DNA from: an uncultured Chloroflexia bacterium
Lineage (GTDB): Bacteria > Chloroflexota > Anaerolineae > CG2-30-64-16
NCBI GenBank assembly: GCA_963810095.1
Contig: CAWEMM010000006.1
Span: 800,001 to 864,000, forward strand
Direction: 5' to 3'
Length of the DNA stretch: 64,000 nucleotides
In this document: one piece after another, positions 39,310 through 55,500 of the stretch
How positions within the stretch are numbered: the first letter of the stretch is position 1
Layout: each line of letters opens with the position of its first letter
Notes under the pieces: model-generated
What the model was told of the DNA's origin: nothing
What the model saw: the letters and a program-made list of their open reading frames with translations, nothing else
The model's database searches: none
Program-made: the position numbers and the translations under genes

Positions 39310-39540
39310 GGGGGCACTACCTCCAAGATGCGGCAGACGTAAGGCCGAGGTCACCTCGCGCCTACAGCCGTATGATACCACAACGCCTCCGTCCCGGACG
39401 CGGTCAGGGAGAGACAGACTCGATAGCCGGCAAACGCGATCTGCGCTGCCCCCCGCCTTCCCTCAGTTCGCGCGATTCGCGGGGCCCCGCCCGAGGTGGT
39501 ATACTCTTCTCATCCTCGTATAACCGTTTGGGAGGTTTGC

Positions 39541-40807
39541 ATGACCGTAACCGCCGTCGTCGGCGCTCAATGGGGCGATGAAGGGAAGGGGCGGATCGTC
39601 GACTACCTGGCCCAGAACGCCCACATGGTGATTCGCTTCCAGGGCGGCGACAACGCCGGGCACACGGTTGTCAACGAGCACGGCACATTCCGCCTGCACC
39701 TGGTCCCCTCAGGCATCTTCAACCCTGCGACGGTTTGCATCGTCGGTTCCGGCACGGTCATTCATCCCCCGGCCTTGCTCGACGAGATGAGCGAACTGGT
39801 GGCCGCGGGCATCAGCCTCGATAACCTTTGGATTTCGGATCGCGCCCACGTGATTATGCCTTACCACCGTGTCCTCGACGGGCTCGAGGAGTCGGCACGG
39901 GGCGGCGCGCAGATCGGCACGACCAAGCGGGGCATCGGCCCGGCATACGCGGACAAGGCCGCCCGCAGCGGCATCCGCATGGGCGACCTGTGCCGGCCCG
40001 GCTACCTGGCCGACCGGCTCGCCCTCGCACTCCCGCGCGTCAACCGCACGGTCACGCAGCTCGGCAGCGAGGAATTCGACCTGTACGGGCTGGCACGGCA
40101 GGCGATGGGCTGGGGCAATGCGCTCGACGGGCGCATCGTGGACACTGGGCCCGTCGTGCAGGCCGCCTATCGTGCGGGCGAAGAAATCCTGCTCGAAGGC
40201 CAGCTGGGCGTGATGCGCGACCTCGACTGGGGCACCTACCCCTACGTCACCTCCTCGAATCCGATTGCCGGCGGCGGCTACGCAGGCGCCGGCCTCCCGC
40301 CGCAGGCCATCCAGCGCGTCGTCGGCGTGGTCAAGGCCTACTGCACCGCGGTCGGCGCAGGGCCCCTGCCCACCGAGCTGCACGACGAGGTGGCCGACCA
40401 CCTGCGCAGCGTGGGTGCGGAGTACGGCGCGACGACCGGCCGCCCGCGTCGCTGTGGCTGGCTGGACGGGGTAGCATTGCCCTATGCGGCGTGGCTGAAC
40501 GGCTTCACCGGCCTCGCGATCACCAAGCTCGACGTGCTGGATGGGCTGCCCGAGCTGAAGATCTGCACGGGCTACCGGATCGGCGACGACGTCGTCGACC
40601 GGATCCCCGACACTTACAACATGGCGCGTGCCGACCCGATCTACGAGAGCTGGCCGCGGCTGGCAAGAGTCGACGCGGCACGCCCGCCGCTGGGGCGAAC
40701 TGCCGCAAGCCGCCAAGGCCTACCTCGACCGCATCTCAGAGCTTGCCGGCACGCCCTTGCAGTACGTCTCCGTCGGCCCCGGCAGGGACCAGTTGATCGT
40801 CTTGTAG
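39541..40807 (+). CDS. purA: Adenylosuccinate synthetase, frameshifted near 40655
   Basis: Motifs [39 protein letters not shown]; the C-terminus [13 protein letters not shown] is in the shifted frame. Confidence 0.95.
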
Positions 40808-40909
40808 AGCGAGAAGGTCGCAAACACAAAGGCACCGGAGGACCGAAGCTTCACAAGAGTCCTTGTGCATCTTTGGTTCTTCGGTTCTTTTGTGTTAGGA
40901 GAGGGCAAC

Positions 40910-42315
40910 GTGAGCGACTCTTCCTATTCTTACGACACCTATCTGTCCCCGTTCACCTGGCGGTACGGCTCGACGGAGATGCGGGCGCTGTGGAGCGAGC
41001 TGCACCGGCGCAGGCTGTGGCGCACGATCTGGGTCGCGCTGGCCCAGCGCGGAGCAGGCCGCGGGCCTGACCACCCCCGAGCAGGTCGCCGACCTGGCGG
41101 CGCACGCCGAAGAGATCGACCTGGCCGCGCGCGCTGGAGATCGAGGCCGAGATCCATCACGACCTGATGGCCGAGGTGCGCACCTTTGCCGAGCAGTGTC
41201 CGATTGGCGGCGGGGTCATCCACCTGGGCGCCACCTCGATGGACATCGAGGACAACGCCGAGGCGCTGCGCGTCCGCGACGCGCTCGACATCCTCCTCGG
41301 CAAGCTCAGGGCGCTGCTGGCCGCTTTCGCCGGCCAGATCGAGGAGTGGGCCGGTGTCCCGGCGATGGCCTTCACCCACCTCCAGCCCGCCGAGCCGACG
41401 ACGGTGGGCTACCGGCTGGCGCAGTACGGCCAGGACCTGCTGACCGACTACCTCGACCTGGGCCGCGTGCGTGCGGCCGTGCGGGGCAAGGGCCTCAAGG
41501 GCGCGGTCGGCACGTCCGCGTCGTACCTCCAATTGCTCCAGGGCACCGGGATGACGCCGGCAGAACTCGAGGACCGCGTCATGGACACCCTCGGGTTGCC
41601 CGCATATCCGGTCGCCACCCAGGTCTATCCGCGCAAGCAGGACTACACAGTCCTCGCCGCCCTCGCCGGGCTGGCCCAGTCGCTCTACAAGTTCGCGTTC
41701 GACCTGCGTTTCCTGCAGACGCCTCCCATCGGCGAATGGGCCGAGCCGTTTGGCCGCAGCCAGGTCGGTTCGAGCGCCATGCCCTTCAAGCGCAACCCGA
41801 TCCATGCGGAGAACATGGACAGCCTCGCCCGGCTGCTCGCCGGCCTGCCGCGGGTCGCCTGGGACAACGCCGCGCACAACCTGCTCGAGCGCACGCTGGA
41901 CGATTCGGCCAACCGCCGGACGATCCTCCCCGAAGGGTTCCTGATCGCGGACGAGCTGCTGATGCGGGCCACCCGCATTGTCACGGGCCTGCGCTTCGAC
42001 GGGCAGGCCCGCGAACGGCTGCTGGCCGCGTACGGGCCCTTTGCGGCCACAGAGCGGCTGCTGATGGAGCTGGCGCGGCGCGGCGCCGACCGGCAGGCCA
42101 TGCACGAGCTGATTCGCGAGCACTCGATGGCGGCCTGGGCGGCCGTCCAGGCCGGCGGAGCCAACCCATTGGTCGGGGCCCTGTGCGCCGACCCGCGGCT
42201 GGCGGAGTATGCGGACCGGGAGCAGCTGGCGGCGTGGCTGGACGCAACCGACTACCTGGGGGATGCGCCCACCCGGGCGCTGGAGATGGCCGCGACGCTG
42301 CGTCGCACGGTGTAG
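40910..42315 (+). CDS. purB: Adenylosuccinate lyase, frameshifts near 41045-41130
   Basis: Motifs [40 protein letters not shown]. Confidence 0.93.
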
Positions 42316-43815: not shown

Positions 43816-44517
43816 TCAGGGCCAAGTAGTTGGCGCACCGGTTGCGAGGCAGGCGACGTACGGATATCCGATTTTCACCGGGAAATTGGTGCCGCTTCCA
43901 CCAAATTCGTCGACAGTCCAGATATCAAACAACTGAAGCGTAGCGTCCCAGTGCAGGACCTGAGTGGCGCTCAACGCCGTTGCCAGCTGCGTCGCGTTGG
44001 TGATCGTGGACTGGTCCAGCGGGAGCGAGAATTCGTTGAACTTGCACGAGGCCGCCGTAACGAAGGTGAAGTGAGTGCTTCCCTGTGCGGGGACATCGCC
44101 AACAAACGAAACCACTGCCGGGGCCGTCAAGTCGAGGAGCAGCCGATCCGCGCCCCCAACGGCTAGCGGGAACTTGGTCCCCGATCCGCCAAACTCGTCA
44201 ATCGTCCAGATCTGGTAAACCTGGTTCACATTGTCCCACGCCAACGCTTGACGCACGCTGCTGCCGACCAGCTTGGCAAGCCCATCTGCATCAAAGGACA
44301 GGCCCGCAGTGGTGAACTGATTGGCAGAATTGAGAGGCATCGCAATCATGTTGAAGTTCGGTCCGGCCGTCGGCGCATCCGGGTGATACTCCGGCGCGGC
44401 GGCCGATACAGGCGCCCCAGCCAGCGGCGCGTTAGCATTGGGCAACGCCAACACGGCAAGTGCACCCAGCCCGAGGAGCAGGGCCACGGCGAGGACAGTC
44501 GTGAGAACTCGTCTCAT
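43816..44517 (-). CDS. Secreted protein with two internal repeats
   Basis: Signal peptide; repeats N-x-(I/F)-(A/S)-(M/L)PL...WD...IWT(I/V)DEFGGSGT(K/N)FP. Confidence 0.75.
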   Translation of the reverse strand: MRRVLTTVLAVALLLGLGALAVLALPNANAPLAGAPVSAAAPEYHPDAPTAGPNFNMIAMPLNSANQFTTAGLSFDADGLAKLVGSSVRQALAWDNVNQVYQIWTIDEFGGSGTKFPLAVGGADRLLLDLTAPAVVSFVGDVPAQGSTHFTFVTAASCKFNEFSLPLDQSTITNATQLATALSATQVLHWDATLQLFDIWTVDEFGGSGTNFPVKIGYPYVACLATGAPTTWP

Positions 44518-48240: not shown

Positions 48241-48369
48241 CTACTTGTTCGTGCCGGCCGGATCAAGCGGATCAGGAATGCTCAACGGTGAACCGGCGCG
48301 TACCTCCAATGCCGACTCGTAGACCACTGCCGGCTCCTCGTATGGCTTGCGTTCCTGCTTCTGCTCCAT
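48241..48369 (-). CDS. Putative RiPP precursor peptide (42 aa; below the ORF-track cutoff)
   Basis: AGGAGG RBS, then MEQKQERKPYEEPAVVYESALEVRAGSPLSIPDPLDPAGTNK*. YxxP leader motif; immediately downstream of the PqqD gene. Confidence 0.8.
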   Translation of the reverse strand: MEQKQERKPYEEPAVVYESALEVRAGSPLSIPDPLDPAGTNK

Positions 48370-48471
48370 GATATCCTCCTAAAGATGTACCGCTACACAA
48401 CTACTGCGGAACTAGAGCGGCGCTGCGGCGATGTGGCATGGGATGGCAAGGGCATCACCGTGCGCCATGCG

Positions 48472-48744
48472 TCAAGAGTCAAAGGTCAGCAAACCCCGCC
48501 CGACCAGGTCTCGGCAGAAAGCCAGGGTGTCTGATTCGGCCTTGACCGAGCTGACCTCGTACTCTGCGGCGATCACGCGGGTTATATCGCCGATAGTGTG
48601 TTGTCCGTCGGCAAGCTCCCAGATGCGGGCGCCCACCCCGTTCAACACAGTCACCTTCTTCTGCTCCGCGTGAACCAGGACAGCCTCGCCGTCGAGCGTT
48701 CGACTCGCGACTCCCGACATGCGGCGTGGAACAACGTCTAGCAC
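48472..48744 (-). CDS. PqqD-family protein / stand-alone RiPP recognition element
   Basis: 90 aa with LDGEAVL...LNGVGARIWELADG...IAAEYEV...FCRDL..RGLL, the typical PqqD pattern. Confidence 0.9.
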   Translation of the reverse strand: MLDVVPRRMSGVASRTLDGEAVLVHAEQKKVTVLNGVGARIWELADGQHTIGDITRVIAAEYEVSSVKAESDTLAFCRDLVGRGLLTFDS

Positions 48745-49611
48745 GGCGCCTCTTGAGCAATGACGTCCCAGAAGGCGTCATCCTTCCGAAAGTGCAGCCG
48801 CCGCACGCCGACTGCGCCGGCAATGTCGCGGCAGCGCTCCATCAGGACCGGCAGCAGATCCGGGTGGTCGTTCACCACCGGCGCGTTCGCGAGCAACTCG
48901 GCCGCGCCGGCTAGGCCCGGCATCGGCTCGAGAAATACCTCCCGATCCTGGATCAGTTTGTAAATCCCGGTGACCAAGCCGCTCTCGGCCTCACCTTCGC
49001 GGTCCATGGTGTCAAAATTCCAGAAGGGTGTGCCGTAGGCGCACCAACCGCGTGCGCTGCGGCGCAATAGGATCAGGTCATCACCGAGAGCCACAGCTCG
49101 CTTTGCGGCCTGCGAGAGTGCCACAACAGTCGACTTACCGCTCCCGCTTTGGCCCACGAATAGGGCAACCCGTCGCCGCGTCATCCCTGGTGCAGGTTGG
49201 GTCAGTGCCGGTCGCACTCTCGCGCATGAGCGCCGCACAGTGAAGCAATAATCCATCGCGCCGCAGAGCAAAGAGGGCCAACGCGATGCGCAGAAAGTAC
49301 TCTGCTTCCCGCGCGGGCTCGGCTGAGCGCATGCGCAACTCAGCCCGCCCCCGCAGTGCGTCAATCATACCATAGAACGTGGTGCCGTCAAGTAGGTAGT
49401 CTTCCCCCTTCTTTGTCAAAGACGCGTGCAAGATACTCTCGGACGTGCCCGGGGCGTTCGCCTCGGGCGCCTCGCCGTGTACGACGACGACAAAGTCGGT
49501 CGTCGCGGCGCGGGCACACGCAAAGCGGGCAAGACGCGGTGCGAGGCGGTCGACCAGCGCGGCCGGGCTTAGCTCCAGCTCGACACGCCAACGTGCCAAT
49601 TCTAAGAGCAT
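48738..49611 (-). CDS. HPr-kinase-related P-loop protein (ScmC-like), frameshifted near 49180
   Basis: Motifs LLLHCAAL, LFVGQSGSGKST, LGDD, YGTPF, LHFRKD..FW. Confidence 0.78.
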
Positions 49612-49644: not shown

Positions 49645-50076
49645 TTAACCGCTATCACCGCGCGCCTTTTGCAGGAGCCGGCCGCCTCGCAGCCAGATCA
49701 GCAGGACCAGCACGGCCAGGCCGCCCAGCAGCACCGCATGCTGCCACTGCAAGCCGCCCGCGCGCACGCTGATCGGGCCGAAGCGGTTGACGAGCCCGTT
49801 TCGCTCCACTTCCTGCAACTCGTAGTAATAAGTCACGCCGCCCTGCGCCGTCTTGTCCAGGAAAGTGTATTCCTTCCCGGTCAACGGATCGGCGGATGGG
49901 GGTATCAACTCGTCGTTGACCTTGGTCTCGAACGGCCCATCAGGCGAGGTGCCGCGGTACAGGTTGAAGCCAGCCGTGTTCATCTCGGTTTCGGTCTTCC
50001 ACGTCACGCGCACCGGCGCGCCGCATCCGGCCAGCAAAAAGGTAAGCAGTGTCAGCAGAAACAGACAATTCCGCAT
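49645..50076 (-). CDS. Lipoprotein with an Fn3/Ig-like module and a C-terminal TM helix
   Basis: Lipobox LAGC; VTWKTETEMNTAGFNLYR...YTFLD...TYYYELQEVE; hydrophobic then basic tail. Confidence 0.75.
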   Translation of the reverse strand: MRNCLFLLTLLTFLLAGCGAPVRVTWKTETEMNTAGFNLYRGTSPDGPFETKVNDELIPPSADPLTGKEYTFLDKTAQGGVTYYYELQEVERNGLVNRFGPISVRAGGLQWQHAVLLGGLAVLVLLIWLRGGRLLQKARGDSG

Positions 50077-50198: not shown

Positions 50199-52052
50199 TC
50201 ATGGACACGCAATCCGTGCGTCTGCGCCGAGTGTCACCTGCGTACGGCACTCCCGGAAGCTGAACGTGAGGGGCCAGCCCGCAGTGCCCGCCTGCTTGCG
50301 CACATACAGCTTGTACGGCTCGGCCGGAACTCCGGCCGGCAGCCGGTAGCGGAGCGTAACCGTGTGCGCGGCGCCCGGCGCCAGGACAAAGTCGCCGCTG
50401 AATACTGTGGCGCCGCCCTCGCCCGGCTCTGTGGAGGGCGAGTTCAGCCCTTCGGCCGCCAACAACTCACTCCCCGCGGGTGCGAAAACGCGCACGTAGT
50501 CCCAGTAACAGCGGGCCGCGAGTTCCGCATAGTTGGGGCCATAGTCGAGGCTTCGTTCACATTTGGAGTCGGCCTTGGCGGGGGCGGTGTGCGTGTAAGT
50601 GATGGTGAGGGTCGCCTCCAGCCCGCCTGACAGCTCCTGCACCCGGTAGTCGAGCGCCTGCTGGACGAACATGTTGGCCTTGTCAAAGCCCACGTTGCTG
50701 TCGACGACGGACAGGAAGTCGCTGGCGGCAGGCACGCGCACGGCGCCGTCCCAGCCTTGACGGGCAAGCAGCGCGGCCAGCGTGGGATCGTCGACGGCCG
50801 CCTGGATGTGGCGGCCGTCGAGCGCGGCGTAAAGCGTGCGCGCCAGCCCGACCGTGTCGAGGTCGCCGCCGGCCTGGACTTTAGCCAGGGCGGCTTTGAC
50901 AAGCTCGCCCATGAAGTCCTTGCGCTTGGTCCACCAATCGCCGGCCGCGCCGGTCTCCAGGGCCGCACCGCCGGCAGGACTTTCCCAGGCGGCCTTCATC
51001 CAGCCCAGCGCGTTCTCGCCCGTCACGGGCTCGGCGATGCCCGGCACCTGCAGGGGGCCGACCGCGCCGACCAGTTGGCGCACGGCTTCGAGATCGAGCG
51101 CGATGGCGCCGTCCGTCTCGATGCCCCGATCTTGCGCGTAGAGGGCGCGTGCGACGTCGGCCGAGCTTGGGAAATCAGGAGACCAGTTCGAGTCGCGCAG
51201 TACCCACAGGTCTGCCGCCATGTACTTGCGCAGCGCAGCCGGGGGCTCGGGGTGCGGCTGTTCCCAGTTATCCACCGCGTAGCTGTCGGTGAGCACCAGG
51301 TCCGTGAGCTTGCCCCGGTCGAGGGTCACATGACCCGCACCGCTGATGAAGCCGCCGGTCGCCCGCAGCTCGTCGCTGTTCTGCGCCAGCAGCAGATAGG
51401 TGCGCGGCCCGCCTGCGCCCAGCAGCTCGGGCGCGGCCTCGACCAGCGCCAGGCCGTCCTGGGCGAGCGGGAGCAGCTTGTCCAGCTTCTCTACCTGGCT
51501 GATAAGCCGCGGCTCGGCAAGGGGCGGCAGCTCGGCCCGGAGTTCCGCCGCGTTCGCCAGCCGCGCCCGGGCCTCGGCTACTGCGGGCTGCGCGGCCTCC
51601 AGCGCCTCGACGGCCTTCGGCAGGGTGTCCAGCCCCCCACCGTCTGCGACCAGTTGGCCGACGGGCGCGAGGGCATCGGAGGCGAGCCGGGCGGCCGCGG
51701 CAAACTCGACCGCCAGCTCGACCAGCTTGGGTGCTGCCACCAGGTCGGGCCCGAAACGGGGGGCCCAGCCGAGCGCGGGCGCGATGCGCAGGAATGGCCG
51801 GCCCGCCGCTTGGGCTTCGACGAGATGCGTCTGCAAGCTGGCCAGGTCAGCCTGCGCCTGGGGTAGGGCCGCCGCGGAGGGGTCGGCAAGAAGGCCCTGC
51901 AGACGATCGAGATCGTCCAGCGCGGCCCGGGCATAGAGCGCCGTGCGTGCGGCGCGCCAACCCAGCCATGCCAGGAGAGCAATGGCCGAGATGATCAGCG
52001 CAAGCGCCAGCCAGCGATTCAAGCGGCTTGGTCGGGAAGCAGTTTCGGGCAT
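50199..52052 (-). CDS. DUF4012 domain membrane-anchored protein
   Basis: Motifs YLLLAQNSDELRATGGFI, RDSNWSPDFP, DGAIALD, N-GFDKAN; N-terminal TM helix. Confidence 0.85.
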   Translation of the reverse strand: MPETASRPSRLNRWLALALIISAIALLAWLGWRAARTALYARAALDDLDRLQGLLADPSAAALPQAQADLASLQTHLVEAQAAGRPFLRIAPALGWAPRFGPDLVAAPKLVELAVEFAAAARLASDALAPVGQLVADGGGLDTLPKAVEALEAAQPAVAEARARLANAAELRAELPPLAEPRLISQVEKLDKLLPLAQDGLALVEAAPELLGAGGPRTYLLLAQNSDELRATGGFISGAGHVTLDRGKLTDLVLTDSYAVDNWEQPHPEPPAALRKYMAADLWVLRDSNWSPDFPSSADVARALYAQDRGIETDGAIALDLEAVRQLVGAVGPLQVPGIAEPVTGENALGWMKAAWESPAGGAALETGAAGDWWTKRKDFMGELVKAALAKVQAGGDLDTVGLARTLYAALDGRHIQAAVDDPTLAALLARQGWDGAVRVPAASDFLSVVDSNVGFDKANMFVQQALDYRVQELSGGLEATLTITYTHTAPAKADSKCERSLDYGPNYAELAARCYWDYVRVFAPAGSELLAAEGLNSPSTEPGEGGATVFSGDFVLAPGAAHTVTLRYRLPAGVPAEPYKLYVRKQAGTAGWPLTFSFRECRTQVTLGADARIACP

Positions 52053-52057
52053 GCGTC

Positions 52058-53630
52058 CTATTGAGATGAGCCAAGTACGGGCGCCAGGACCCCGGACGGC
52101 GGAACCTTCGCGCCGAGCCGTAGGGGCAGGCCTACGTCCGCGGTAGCGTAGACCGGGCGCCGGGCAAGCCAGCCTGGAATCAGCTCTTCGAGGCCGGTGA
52201 CGTCGTCTCCCGATGGTAACAGATCGGGGTGCCTCTCGGCAAGCGAACGCCGGTACCAATCGAAACCGAAGAGACTGACGTTGACTACAGCCACATCGGG
52301 CCGCGCGTTCAGCCCGTACACTCCGTACCACAATGCAAAGGTCTCGCGGTCGGCGGCGGTGAGGACGACAGCGTTCGGCGCGGCGTCTTGGGCGCTGTTC
52401 GCCGTGGCCCGGGCCGCCAGGTCGTCCGCGGGGCTGTGCTGCTGCCACCGCCCCGCGATGGGGCCAACCACCAGCGCGGCGGCTGCGACGACGTGCGAGA
52501 GCGGCTGCCGGGCGGGGCTTGAGCGCTGCCAGGAGGCCGTCGAGTCCGGCGGCCAGCCACAGCGCCATAACGGCGAAGGCGGGAATCAGGTAAACGTCCG
52601 AGTCGGTCGAGTTGTACCCGATCGCGTAGATCGCGAACGCGGCCCAGATCAGCAGCGTGGTCAGCCACCACTGGGGCAGCCGCCGCTCGAGCCGCCACAG
52701 CCCGCCCAGCGCCACGACCAGGCCCCAGGGGAGGAATTGGCCCGCGGTTGTGGAGACCCAGCCGGCCAGCCGCGGGCAGCTCGGCCAGCGGCAGGCCGAA
52801 GACCAGCGGCGCGTAGAGCCTGCCGGTGACGACCCAGAGGAATCGATCCGGGGTCACCGGGTCGCCCCAGTTGATCGGCGGACGGCCCGACGCGGCGAGG
52901 GGCAGGTAGGCGTAGACCAGCAGCCCGGCCAACACCGCGAGCCCCGCCGCGCCCAGGTCGCGGGCCAGTCGCTTCCGCCCGCGGCCTTTCAGCCAGATCC
53001 ACGCGGCGAGCCCGGGCACCACGAGAGCGATCGTGATGTGGTTGCCAAGTCCAAGGCCGAGCGTTAGGCCGGCCAGCGCAAGCCAGTGCGCGGCCGGGCG
53101 GCCGGCGTCGACCGCTTCTCCCCACCGCCATGCCAACCACAACAGACAGACGCAGAGCAGCGCGTTGAGTGCATACACCTCGACGATGGTGGCCTGCCCC
53201 CAGACGAGGGGCGAGGCGGCCCACGCGAGCCCGCCGAGCAGCGCAGCAGCAGCCGCCGCGCCCGGTCGCGACCCTCCGGTCCGCCAGGGTCCGCCGGGCC
53301 AGGTCGACGAGCAGGGCCGACCGCCAGCGCCGCGCAGAGCGCGGACAACCAGGCCCCGGCCCGGGCGGGTTCGCCGCCGGCGAGCGCGACGAATGCTCGC
53401 AGAAGCAGCTCGTAGGTGGGGTAGCCGGTGGGATGCGGGACGCCGCCGGTCAACGCAGCTGCGAGCAGGTCACCGCCGTCGGCCCCGTTGTGCGCCCACG
53501 TCAAGCCGGGCGGCAACGTCGCGGCATACAGCGCGAGCGCAGGGCACCGCCCAGCATCGGAGCGAGGATTGCGGCGGTCCGCGGGCGGGTCACGCGCGGA
53601 CCGCGCCGGGTCGACCAGGGTTGGCTGCAC
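52058..53630 (-). CDS. DUF2723/TMEM260-like GT-C membrane glycosyltransferase, several frameshifts
   Basis: Motifs DGGDL...GVPHPTGYPTY, WGQATIVEVYALNAL, GLGNH, YAYLPL, INWGDP, DVYLIP, D..TFALWY. Confidence 0.78.
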
Positions 53631-54414: not shown

Positions 54415-55340
54415 TTACTTCTCCGGACGGGCAATCACCACCAGCCGGTGAGTGTTATTGGTCGGCGGCCAACAGGTAATGAGCGTGACCCGTTCGTCGC
54501 CCGTCGGCTGGATGTATTGCGCGTTGATTTCCCGCTGCTGCTGCGAGATGCCGGTGTCCTTCAGACGATAGAAATCGGTGATAACGTACTTATACTGCGT
54601 CCCCGAAGCGTCGATAGAGGAAGACTTCACGGCCGTCCAATGCGTCCGACTTGTCGGTGTAGTTGTCGACCTTCACCCGGCCATCGTTCTTCCAGGCCTG
54701 GCTGATCGGCATGAACACCTTCCCGTAGATGTTGTTGTGGCCCGAGATCACCAGGTTGCTCGCCTTGACCGATGCCCGCGCTGTTGAGGTGGTGGCCGGC
54801 GACGTTCTTGGGAATCACCCATTGCGAGACCGGCCCCGAGTTCGTCTGGACCACCTCCCAACCCATCTCCACCACGGGGGTGTCGATCTTCAGGTCGGGA
54901 ATGCTCAGCCGGACAGGAAGCACGGGCGCCGGCGCCGCCGTCGGCGAGGCCGTGGCCGTCGCCGGGACAGACGTCGGTGTCCGAAGTGGAGCAGCCGTCG
55001 TTGCGCGGCGAGTTGCGGGCGCGGCCGGCGAGGGCGCGGGGCTTGCAGGCAAGGTCGCGCTCCGGGTCGAGGTTGGAGCCGGTTTGGCCGAGGCCAACTC
55101 CGCGGCCGGAGTGCCCGCCATGGGGGCGCCCCCTGCCACCCTAGTGCTTGCGGGAGCAGCCAGTTCCAGCGCCATGCGCGTCGCCCGCGCCGACGCGGCC
55201 GCCGAGCCTTGCTCCAATTCAGACCGCACCTGCGCGGCCTGCACCTCAGTCCAGGCGAAATACCCCGCCACGATCAGTATCAACAGCAGGCCGATCCCCA
55301 TCAGGACCGTGCCGACGTTCCGAGTGCCATTCCGTCCCAT
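54415..55340 (-). CDS. Sortase (frameshifts near 54640 and 54765)
   Basis: N-terminal TM helix; LSIPDLKID, AGHH, SGHNN (His), VTLITCWP (Cys), THR (Arg). Confidence 0.85.
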
Positions 55341-55500
55341 TAGCAGCCTCAACCCGGCGACCTCGCGGCCCGCCGGCAAGTCAAATACGCGAGAGCATTA
55401 TAGCTTAACGCCCGGGTGTTCCACAACGATACGCGCCCGTGGCGGCGCGGGGCAGTCGAACATTTGACGATAACCCGGGGATATTTGGGGATACGTTCTA

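Follow-up and report, generated by a model that had tools for sequence, protein, structure and literature searches.

Bacillota make linear polyphosphorylated peptides (LPPs; LppA/B/K/S/D/N), as described in PMC13381572. According to that text, LppK polyphosphorylates Ser3 of the core, and the SpI-like LppS, helped by the RRE LppB, cuts the precursor LppA after the residue 15 positions past the leader Tyr. The reading of Tyr-type versus Trp-type leaders through an Asp of the RRE is predicted in the same work. LPP and paeninodin clusters are placed there in capsule loci, the main text contains no mention of C25 peptidases, and the supplements hold two Chloroflexota SpI rows, both outside LPP cluster 1. 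The authors state that neither LPPs nor paeninodins have a known role and that the end product of the LPP pathway was left unidentified. Among the phosphorylated lasso peptides, PsmN is described as adding a hexose to phosphoserine (PMC6993621). In type IX secretion, PorU is described as joining cargo to the amine of Ser or Gly on a sugar (PMC4560394, PMC7468200).

Here we analysed a stretch of 64,000 nucleotides (the window), which is positions 800001-864000 of contig C6 in a 6.13-Mb genome, 88.5% complete. An earlier note made from the letters alone had described in it a RiPP-like module of a precursor peptide, a stand-alone RRE and an HprK-like kinase. With moderate confidence, we propose that these three genes supply peptide maturation to a Chloroflexota surface protein-sorting system that is LPP-like in its biosynthesis and in which the peptide would most likely be the amine acceptor of the cargo. 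Literature searches, with most subscription journals outside their coverage, returned LPP, lasso, T9SS and other CTERM papers and no description of such a Chloroflexota system; passages of bioRxiv 2023.06.07.544157 gave none either.

Results

Organization of the locus

All genes of the module lie on the minus strand, in the order 143-aa membrane protein (49645-50076), P-loop kinase (48738-49611), PqqD protein (48472-48744) and 42-aa open reading frame (48241-48369). The start of the PqqD gene overlaps the end of the kinase gene, and its stop lies 102 nt ahead of the peptide start. The 42-aa reading frame reads as the earlier note had quoted it, and its ribosome-binding site, AGGAGG, lies at 48375-48380, 5 nt ahead of the ATG. 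The module reaches upstream to the 143-aa protein, which has a lipobox-like N-terminus, an FN3-like domain with the motif WxTxxExxxxGF and a C-terminal TM helix and is a candidate receptor for a sorting tag. Downstream it reaches to a secreted 233-aa protein (43755-43054, minus strand), a candidate sorting substrate that lies 4.5 kb behind the peptide and carries a C-terminal P[TN]AV-x-TM-basic tag. Between this protein and the peptide lies a second conserved secreted protein, also of 233 aa (43816-44517, minus strand), which belongs to no known family and follows the peptide in close relatives. The conserved upstream neighbour is a DUF4012 protein whose start is uncertain (50199-52100, minus strand), followed further upstream by TMEM260-like and sortase genes. 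Relatives carry Chloroflexota labels, and the class name Anaerolineae follows in part from locus L135.

As the earlier note had stated, no cyclase, B2 or rSAM gene lies nearby: none was found among the 15 ORFs scanned at 43-55 kb of the window. In a promoter and terminator scan, a single promoter match fell within the kinase gene, and no terminator was found behind the peptide. Contigs from RNA run X14, mostly from relatives, span the peptide and the RRE; such contigs cannot show transcription or its level.

Other genes of the window were also observed. The sortase-family gene (54415-55379; PF04203 in the orthologous locus L042) and the TMEM260-like glycosyltransferase gene (52058-53630) are both split, lie on the minus strand and are conserved in close relatives. 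A secreted alpha-amylase family gene (PF00128; 44652-47946, minus strand), probably a single gene with a break, is inserted behind the peptide. An alpha-amylase-like gene stands in the same place in genome G237 and is absent there in G283 and G212.

The precursor peptide belongs to a family with three core types

Used as a single query, the window peptide matched 47 of 301 genomes of the class at E≤0.05, and a peptide profile matched 65 of 301 at E≤0.01; these searches scored 8 to 21 candidates per genome, and a miss does not equal absence. The earlier note had made conservation of the reading frame beside PqqD homologues a test of its reading, and the order kinase, RRE, peptide is kept in four orthologous loci (L042, L044, L045 and L134), which also have the tagged 233-aa neighbour behind the peptide. 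Because the family occurs in this many genomes and the gene order is kept, the 42-aa reading frame is a genuine gene and not a chance one. Pfam and NCBIfam hold no named family for the peptide or the 143-aa protein. The ESM Atlas returned unnamed clusters only, with a lasso-leader cluster at 0.85 taken as a lead.

The peptide has a predicted 25-aa leader with a YxxP motif (Tyr10, Pro13) and a predicted core of 17 aa. Since the register of the LppA leader puts the cut between Ala25 and Gly26, the core would start with Gly-Ser-Pro, in agreement with the division drawn in the earlier note, and the putative phosphosite would be Ser27, core position 2. The peptide lacks a signal sequence. An MsbA-like exporter was not apparent in the loci, and MsbA formed no recurring cluster among their neighbours.

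From the fetched loci, 72 distinct peptides were parsed, and three matches without a readable motif were dropped. They share a common leader and show three core types. Type A comprises 45 peptides, including that of the window, with a Tyr leader. Fifteen residues past the Tyr stands Ala in 41/45, at a position where the parse demanded Ala, Thr or Ser past the aromatic leader residue. It is followed by Gly (45/45), Ser or Thr (44/45) and Pro (43/45), counts that are partly circular in that the profile was seeded from the window peptide. Beyond Gly-Ser-Pro, the type A cores are highly variable and range from 10 to 31 aa. The sole type A peptide without Ser or Thr at position 2 accompanies a kinase of another type. 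Within 6 kb of type A peptides, an rSAM gene was detected at none of the 45 loci. Type B (n=17) also has a Tyr leader, with Cys at core position 3 and a C-terminal Ser in 17/17 and an rSAM gene in 12 loci. Type C (n=10, one of them mis-parsed) has a Trp leader and an rSAM gene in nine loci; the Trp-leader cores begin with Gln or Asp.

Several relatives differ from these descriptions or extend them. One locus (L066, contig C22 of genome G080) appears to be a type B locus in decay: a peptide without Ser2 lies there by rSAM fragments, next to a kinase near-identical to one of type B. Two-Cys peptides of type B accompany rSAM/SPASM genes of uncharacterised chemistry at eleven loci, one of which, L139, is an Acidobacteria record with a similar two-Cys set and a C25 gene. 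A fourth peptide type, missed by the peptide profile, is encoded at L111:10963-11133 (G283); it has a Tyr leader and three Cys and lies between an rSAM and a kinase gene, followed by a C25 gene.

The RRE and the kinase resemble LPP enzymes

The 90-aa PqqD protein matches PF05402 (E 3e-17). Its best PDB match is LppB (9x8z_B, E 5e-12), and the paeninodin-type PbaB1 (9x90_B) matches at E 0.004. It retains the Asn and Asp (N33 and D70 of LppB) that read Tyr leaders, as expected of a discrete LppB-type RRE. Together with the YxxP leader, this match is consistent with the RRE-dependent precursor postulated in the earlier note. The Tyr-binding Asp is present in 33/33 rows that pair an RRE with a Tyr leader, four of which, first assigned to a wrong upstream motif, proved Tyr-type when inspected. 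It is replaced by Ser or His in 10 of 11 Trp-leader rows, two of these rows being one locus. The Trp-leader RREs are likely one clade, and the covariation of the Asp may be one event.

The kinase is an HprK/PEPCK-like P-loop protein of ~290 aa, assigned by motifs, orthologues, family profile and kinase tree. In the window, its gene is split by a one-base break near 49176 into an N-terminal part from 49611 and a C-terminal part to 48738. Because single contigs from runs X1 and X2 (one study, depth ~3) are one base shorter at 49176, which restores the frame, and because the gene is an unbroken ORF of 268-285 aa in four orthologues, the break is probably an assembly error. The C25 genes of this genome and the rSAM gene of its contig C10 are also split, as in an indel-rich assembly. 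In addition, purA and purB (window 39496-42315) appear frameshifted, pointing to indel errors in the assembly.

An intact kinase orthologue matches ScmC (E 2e-6) and HprK_rel_B (E 5e-5), both under the cut-off, with conserved motifs, and the profile of the kinase family matches PEPCK. In a quick tree of 35 kinases, the clades follow peptide type and the window kinase groups with type A kinases; related genomes share labels, and the tree is a clustering rather than proof of co-evolution. A kinase scan of genome contigs gave at least 11 loci, a thin sampling of the range outside the class.

S26, C25 and nucleotidyltransferase genes in relatives and elsewhere in the genome

In an Anaerolineales locus (L135), one operon encodes an FN3 protein, the kinase, a type A peptide, C25, S26, RRE, a further FN3 protein and a second C25. 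The same operon, without a detected S26, is found at L136. The earlier note had considered a minimal kinase-only system; with two C25 genes in both operons and an S26 gene in one, this understates the content of relatives. In the closest relative (L134), a C25 gene lies ~6 kb downstream of the peptide. S26 and RRE genes sit between two C25 genes in many loci, and the peptide gene is most often directly ahead of a C25 gene. In the S26 proteins of relatives, Ser, His and Asp are invariant, which recalls the LppS triad. Within 6 kb, S26 was detected in 16/45 and a PF14907 nucleotidyltransferase in 8/45 type A loci.

C25 proteins were found in 219 of the 301 genomes of the class. They occur in 63/65 peptide-positive genomes against 156/236 others, in 104/109 kinase-positive genomes against 115/192 others, and in 98/102 S26-positive genomes (E≤1e-20, 102 genomes out of 177 hits) against 121/199 others; the genomes are kin and not independent, so these counts overstate the co-occurrence. 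Whole families have C25 without this set, and many C25 enzymes therefore need no such peptide: in genome family f4, 7/10 genomes have C25 and 0/10 have PqqD or kinase, and in families f16, f20 and f23 all genomes have C25 and one each has PqqD. The C25 proteins match PF01364 at E 1e-70 to 1e-84. All 43 aligned proteins have the Gly-His motif; an ad hoc Cys pattern, which is no proper check of the Cys, matched 2/43.

The genome of the window has a C25 pair at C6:878-884 kb, 30 kb from the module. No S26 gene was detected in this pair, where relatives carry one, in a genome that is 88.5% complete. The only S26 gene detected is on contig C9, beside a kinase of the Trp-leader (type C) clade. Genomes G283 and G212 have an intact module and the same single S26 locus detected. 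PF14907 nucleotidyltransferase genes were found only at C9:640 kb and C6:1612 kb, the latter in a polysaccharide locus, and such genes adjoin Wzc/Wzz and CapD-like genes. The C9 locus (C9:638000-642100, L010) encodes Wzc, the nucleotidyltransferase, S26 and the second kinase, and the C10 locus (C10:104495-109600, L008) a second RRE, an rSAM/SPASM protein, a 71-aa Cys-containing type C peptide with a Trp leader, and C25. Because the C9 kinase falls in the type C clade with support of 100 and G260 has the C9 and C10 pieces in one locus, these constitute a separate type C system. The C6 C25 pair and the PF14907 gene at C6:1612 kb are more likely partners of the window module than the C9 and C10 parts. 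In this arrangement, completion in trans, which the earlier note had raised, is likely, with S26, PF14907 and the C25 pair encoded elsewhere in the genome. The S26 would be that of C9, serving both types, or a cognate one absent from the assembly.

The presence of both a Tyr-type and a Trp-type system in this genome is a parallel to LPP versus paeninodin. The C9 set precedes a very large ORF labelled by eye as alpha-2-macroglobulin-like. A further rSAM/SPASM gene at C6:993098-994531 (L007) is unrelated and is closest to the RiPP maturases TIGR04463 and TIGR04334, under their cut-offs.

A putative sorting tag and an FN3 domain that lacks one strand

At the C-terminus of the secreted proteins next to these peptides, the motif P[TN]AV-x-L-x-x-[FL]-x-A is followed by a TM helix and then by a basic tail. 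Seven tags scanned against NCBIfam matched no specific sorting model and gave one generic LPXTG match barely above the cut-off. Within 6 kb of the 45 type A peptides, tagged cargo was found at 21 (partly circular, the tag profile having been built from these same loci), C25 at 20 and any surface part at 35. Nine of the 45 peptides adjoin cargo with no enzyme detected nearby, many of the contigs being short. In the 6.13-Mb genome, the tag profile found four tags at E<0.001, one of which is that behind the window peptide.

The WxTxxExxxxGF domain is complete in 32 of 49 listed copies, whose classes were checked by eye, and then opens with a V-x-L-x-x-F-x-A strand. This first strand is missing in the other 17 FN3-like domains, including the window protein, and 11 of these are encoded at most 1.4 kb upstream of a kinase. 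AlphaFold models have six long strands in a complete domain and five in the 143-aa protein (pLDDT 91 and 89). A Foldseek search with the latter model returned FN3/Ig rows only, from E 0.003, and nothing at E≤0.001. The models thus assign the 143-aa protein an FN3-like fold, and by sequence and model the tag resembles the strand that this domain lacks. The finding that is new here is this pairing: type A peptide genes adjoin proteins with an uncatalogued P[TN]AV-TM-basic tag, and the FN3 domain encoded upstream is without a tag-like strand.

Residues 19-105 of the 143-aa protein were modelled in complex with a tag from contig C7, the window's own tag fitting the consensus less well. The complex scored 0.40, against 0.02 for the best control. 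Of 157 solved pairs, 116 reached the mark applied, only 18 of them at ≤0.60; of 215 mismatched pairs, 2 reached it, both at ≤0.60. At least 86% of the contacts are shared between runs, the partner pLDDT is at least 49, and no interface is given. The models weakly suggest that the domain may bind the sorting tag.

Two further features of surface proteins were observed. Genome-wide, 35 reading frames carry the pattern [YFW][LIVM]P-x-[LIVM]-x-[RK] at their C-terminus, and ~30 of them look truly secreted; in each C25 pair the first protein has this tail, which is probably another sorting signal. The gene at C6:880592-881779 (L103), which has equivalents elsewhere, is situated between the two C25 genes; its mature product begins exactly with the tag-like strand of a complete FN3 domain and continues with a Thr/Pro linker and a TM helix.

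Discussion

Taken in order, the proposed pathway would start with binding of the Tyr-x-x-Pro leader by the RRE, as homology and the covariation of the Asp suggest. The kinase would then phosphorylate or polyphosphorylate Ser2 of the core, by analogy with LppK and from the conservation of this residue; phosphorylation of Ser by an HprK-like enzyme, as the earlier note had put forward, is the probable primary modification. The cut between Ala25 and Gly26, in the LppA register, would be made by an S26 peptidase whose gene lies elsewhere. More tentatively, the PF14907 nucleotidyltransferase would probably join the phosphate to a sugar, as PsmN does. The product is not a lasso and would be a linear, probably phosphorylated peptide. 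The Gly-phosphoSer peptide would serve the PorU-like C25 peptidases and their tagged cargo, most likely by offering the amine to which cargo is joined and so linking it to a surface glycan. At this last step the association of the genes is observed and the chemistry is conjectural, its chance being about even given the explanation as a whole. Strand complementation may be the way in which the 143-aa protein captures the tag, as sequence and models weakly suggest. Drawn out in full, with a RiPP anchor bound to glycan through its phosphate, acting as C25 acceptor for P[TN]AV-TM cargo, and a tag that completes the missing strand of an FN3 adaptor, the scheme is possible though on balance doubtful.

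Some observations argue against protein sorting. C25 is far commoner than the cassette (219/301), no S26 was detected in the C6 C25 pair, peptide export is unexplained, the Gln or Asp start of the Trp-leader cores is a less natural acceptor, and Bacillota LPP clusters are described without C25 in the main text of PMC13381572. The RRE, kinase and S26 could act in the same way to make a free LPP-like phospho(glyco)peptide, a signal or matrix component that is joined to no protein and whose genes only share surface and polysaccharide loci with the C25 and cargo genes. The capsule loci of LPP and paeninodin clusters, which that text describes without C25, would fit such a product, as would the many C25 genomes without RRE and kinase and the nucleotidyltransferases beside Wzc/Wzz and CapD-like genes. 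We nevertheless consider it unlikely, though deserving real weight: S26 and RRE are wedged between the C25 pair in many loci, peptide genes stand by tagged cargo without an enzyme nearby in 9/45 loci, and the membrane FN3 protein ahead of the kinase appears complementary to the tag. The position of the peptide gene directly ahead of C25, together with cores of 10-31 aa that vary strongly past Gly-Ser-Pro, could instead point to a peptide that is no anchor but regulates or primes C25, be it as a propeptide acting in trans, as an inhibitor or as a substrate, and that is switched by phosphorylation. A cytoplasmic pathway of three enzymes plus a nucleotidyltransferase is elaborate for such a role, and the pairing of peptide with cargo genes better fits a part consumed per cargo, which makes this reading improbable.

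That the module is decaying in this genome, its kinase broken and its cognate S26 lost, has only a slim chance. The frameshift in the window and the C6 C25 pair without S26 speak for decay, but the contigs of two runs restore the kinase frame, purA, purB, the C25 genes and the C10 rSAM gene are split as well, and the modules of G283 and G212 are intact with the same single S26 locus detected; the genome of the window is 88.5% complete. We regard it as very improbable that enzymes encoded elsewhere in the genome complete the peptide into a lasso or an rSAM-cross-linked product. The window core does have Gly1 and Asp8 behind a lasso-type leader, from which the earlier note had derived lasso-ring geometry, and contig C10 does carry an rSAM/SPASM gene with its own RRE and peptide. 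However, this geometry is incidental, as Asp or Glu occurs at core positions 7-9 in 25/45 type A peptides and Thr at -2 in 0/45. The genome has no match to PF13471 (B2), at 88.5% completeness, and its sole PF00733 gene is AsnB-like, scoring 325 bits against AsnB and 86 bits against NF033535, the lasso cyclase model (cut-off 525). The C10 rSAM protein has its own Cys-containing Trp-leader peptide, and rSAM genes accompany 0/45 type A loci. A lasso peptide was rejected on these grounds: no B2, only the AsnB-like gene, Thr-2 never present, and a ring acid that is not conserved.

The sorting system that we favour would give this locus family a concrete and testable role for phosphopeptides in the cell envelope, and points to protein sorting in a phylum where C25 peptidases are common. 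If the peptide is indeed a linker, RiPP and sortase chemistry would be one pathway. If only the LPP-like part holds, LPP-type biosynthesis would be extended to Chloroflexota, with three core types.

Among known systems, SynChlorMet (TIGR04248-04251) and the HprK-related groups A and B (TIGR04352, TIGR04355) likewise have a PqqD-like and an HprK-like protein, with weak ScmD and ScmC matches here. Unlike SynChlorMet, the locus has no ScmE/ScmF pair and type A has no rSAM gene, and all scores are far under the cut-offs: ScmD 42 of 100 bits, ScmC 28 of 125 (for the orthologue) and four rSAM/SPASM genes at most 127 of 400. SynChlorMet, a link drawn in the earlier note, was therefore set aside. With PorU, the proposed system shares C25 peptidases that match NF033707 (under the cut-off), cargo with a C-terminal signal and, in the PorU system, a Gly or Ser amine as acceptor. 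Phosphorylated lassos (paeninodin, pseudomycoidin; PsmK, PsmN) are alike in combining an RRE, an HprK-like kinase and a nucleotidyltransferase, and in their C-terminal Ser, as in the sister two-Cys peptides (17/17). They differ in that B2, cyclase and Thr-2 are lacking here, the leader has Tyr and not Trp, and the predicted phosphosite is near the N-terminus of the core.

LPP pathways share with this locus the stand-alone RRE, a YxxP leader of equal length to the cut, an HprK-like kinase (here with family models under the cut-off and conserved motifs), the lack of a cyclase, and a polysaccharide neighbourhood. The SpI-like S26 and the PF14907 nucleotidyltransferase are also shared, in relatives and elsewhere in this genome; at the locus itself both are absent. 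The LPP leader consensus YxxPxVLxHQxIxFETxxS does not apply as a whole: the YxxPx[VI] part and the spacing up to the cut are as in LPP, but the end reads LE[VT]xA before the cut and G[ST]P after it. By leader consensus and by cluster content, the locus falls outside the LPP group proper. The leader thus ends in L-E-[VT]-R-A here and in F-E-T in LPP, and Ser is at core position 2 here and at position 3 in LPP. Further differences are the dispersed genes, the Chloroflexota host, the lack of a visible MsbA exporter, and the sister types with rSAM. The two C25 peptidases, the C-terminal tag and the FN3 membrane proteins, which go unmentioned in the main text of PMC13381572, likewise set the Chloroflexota loci apart.
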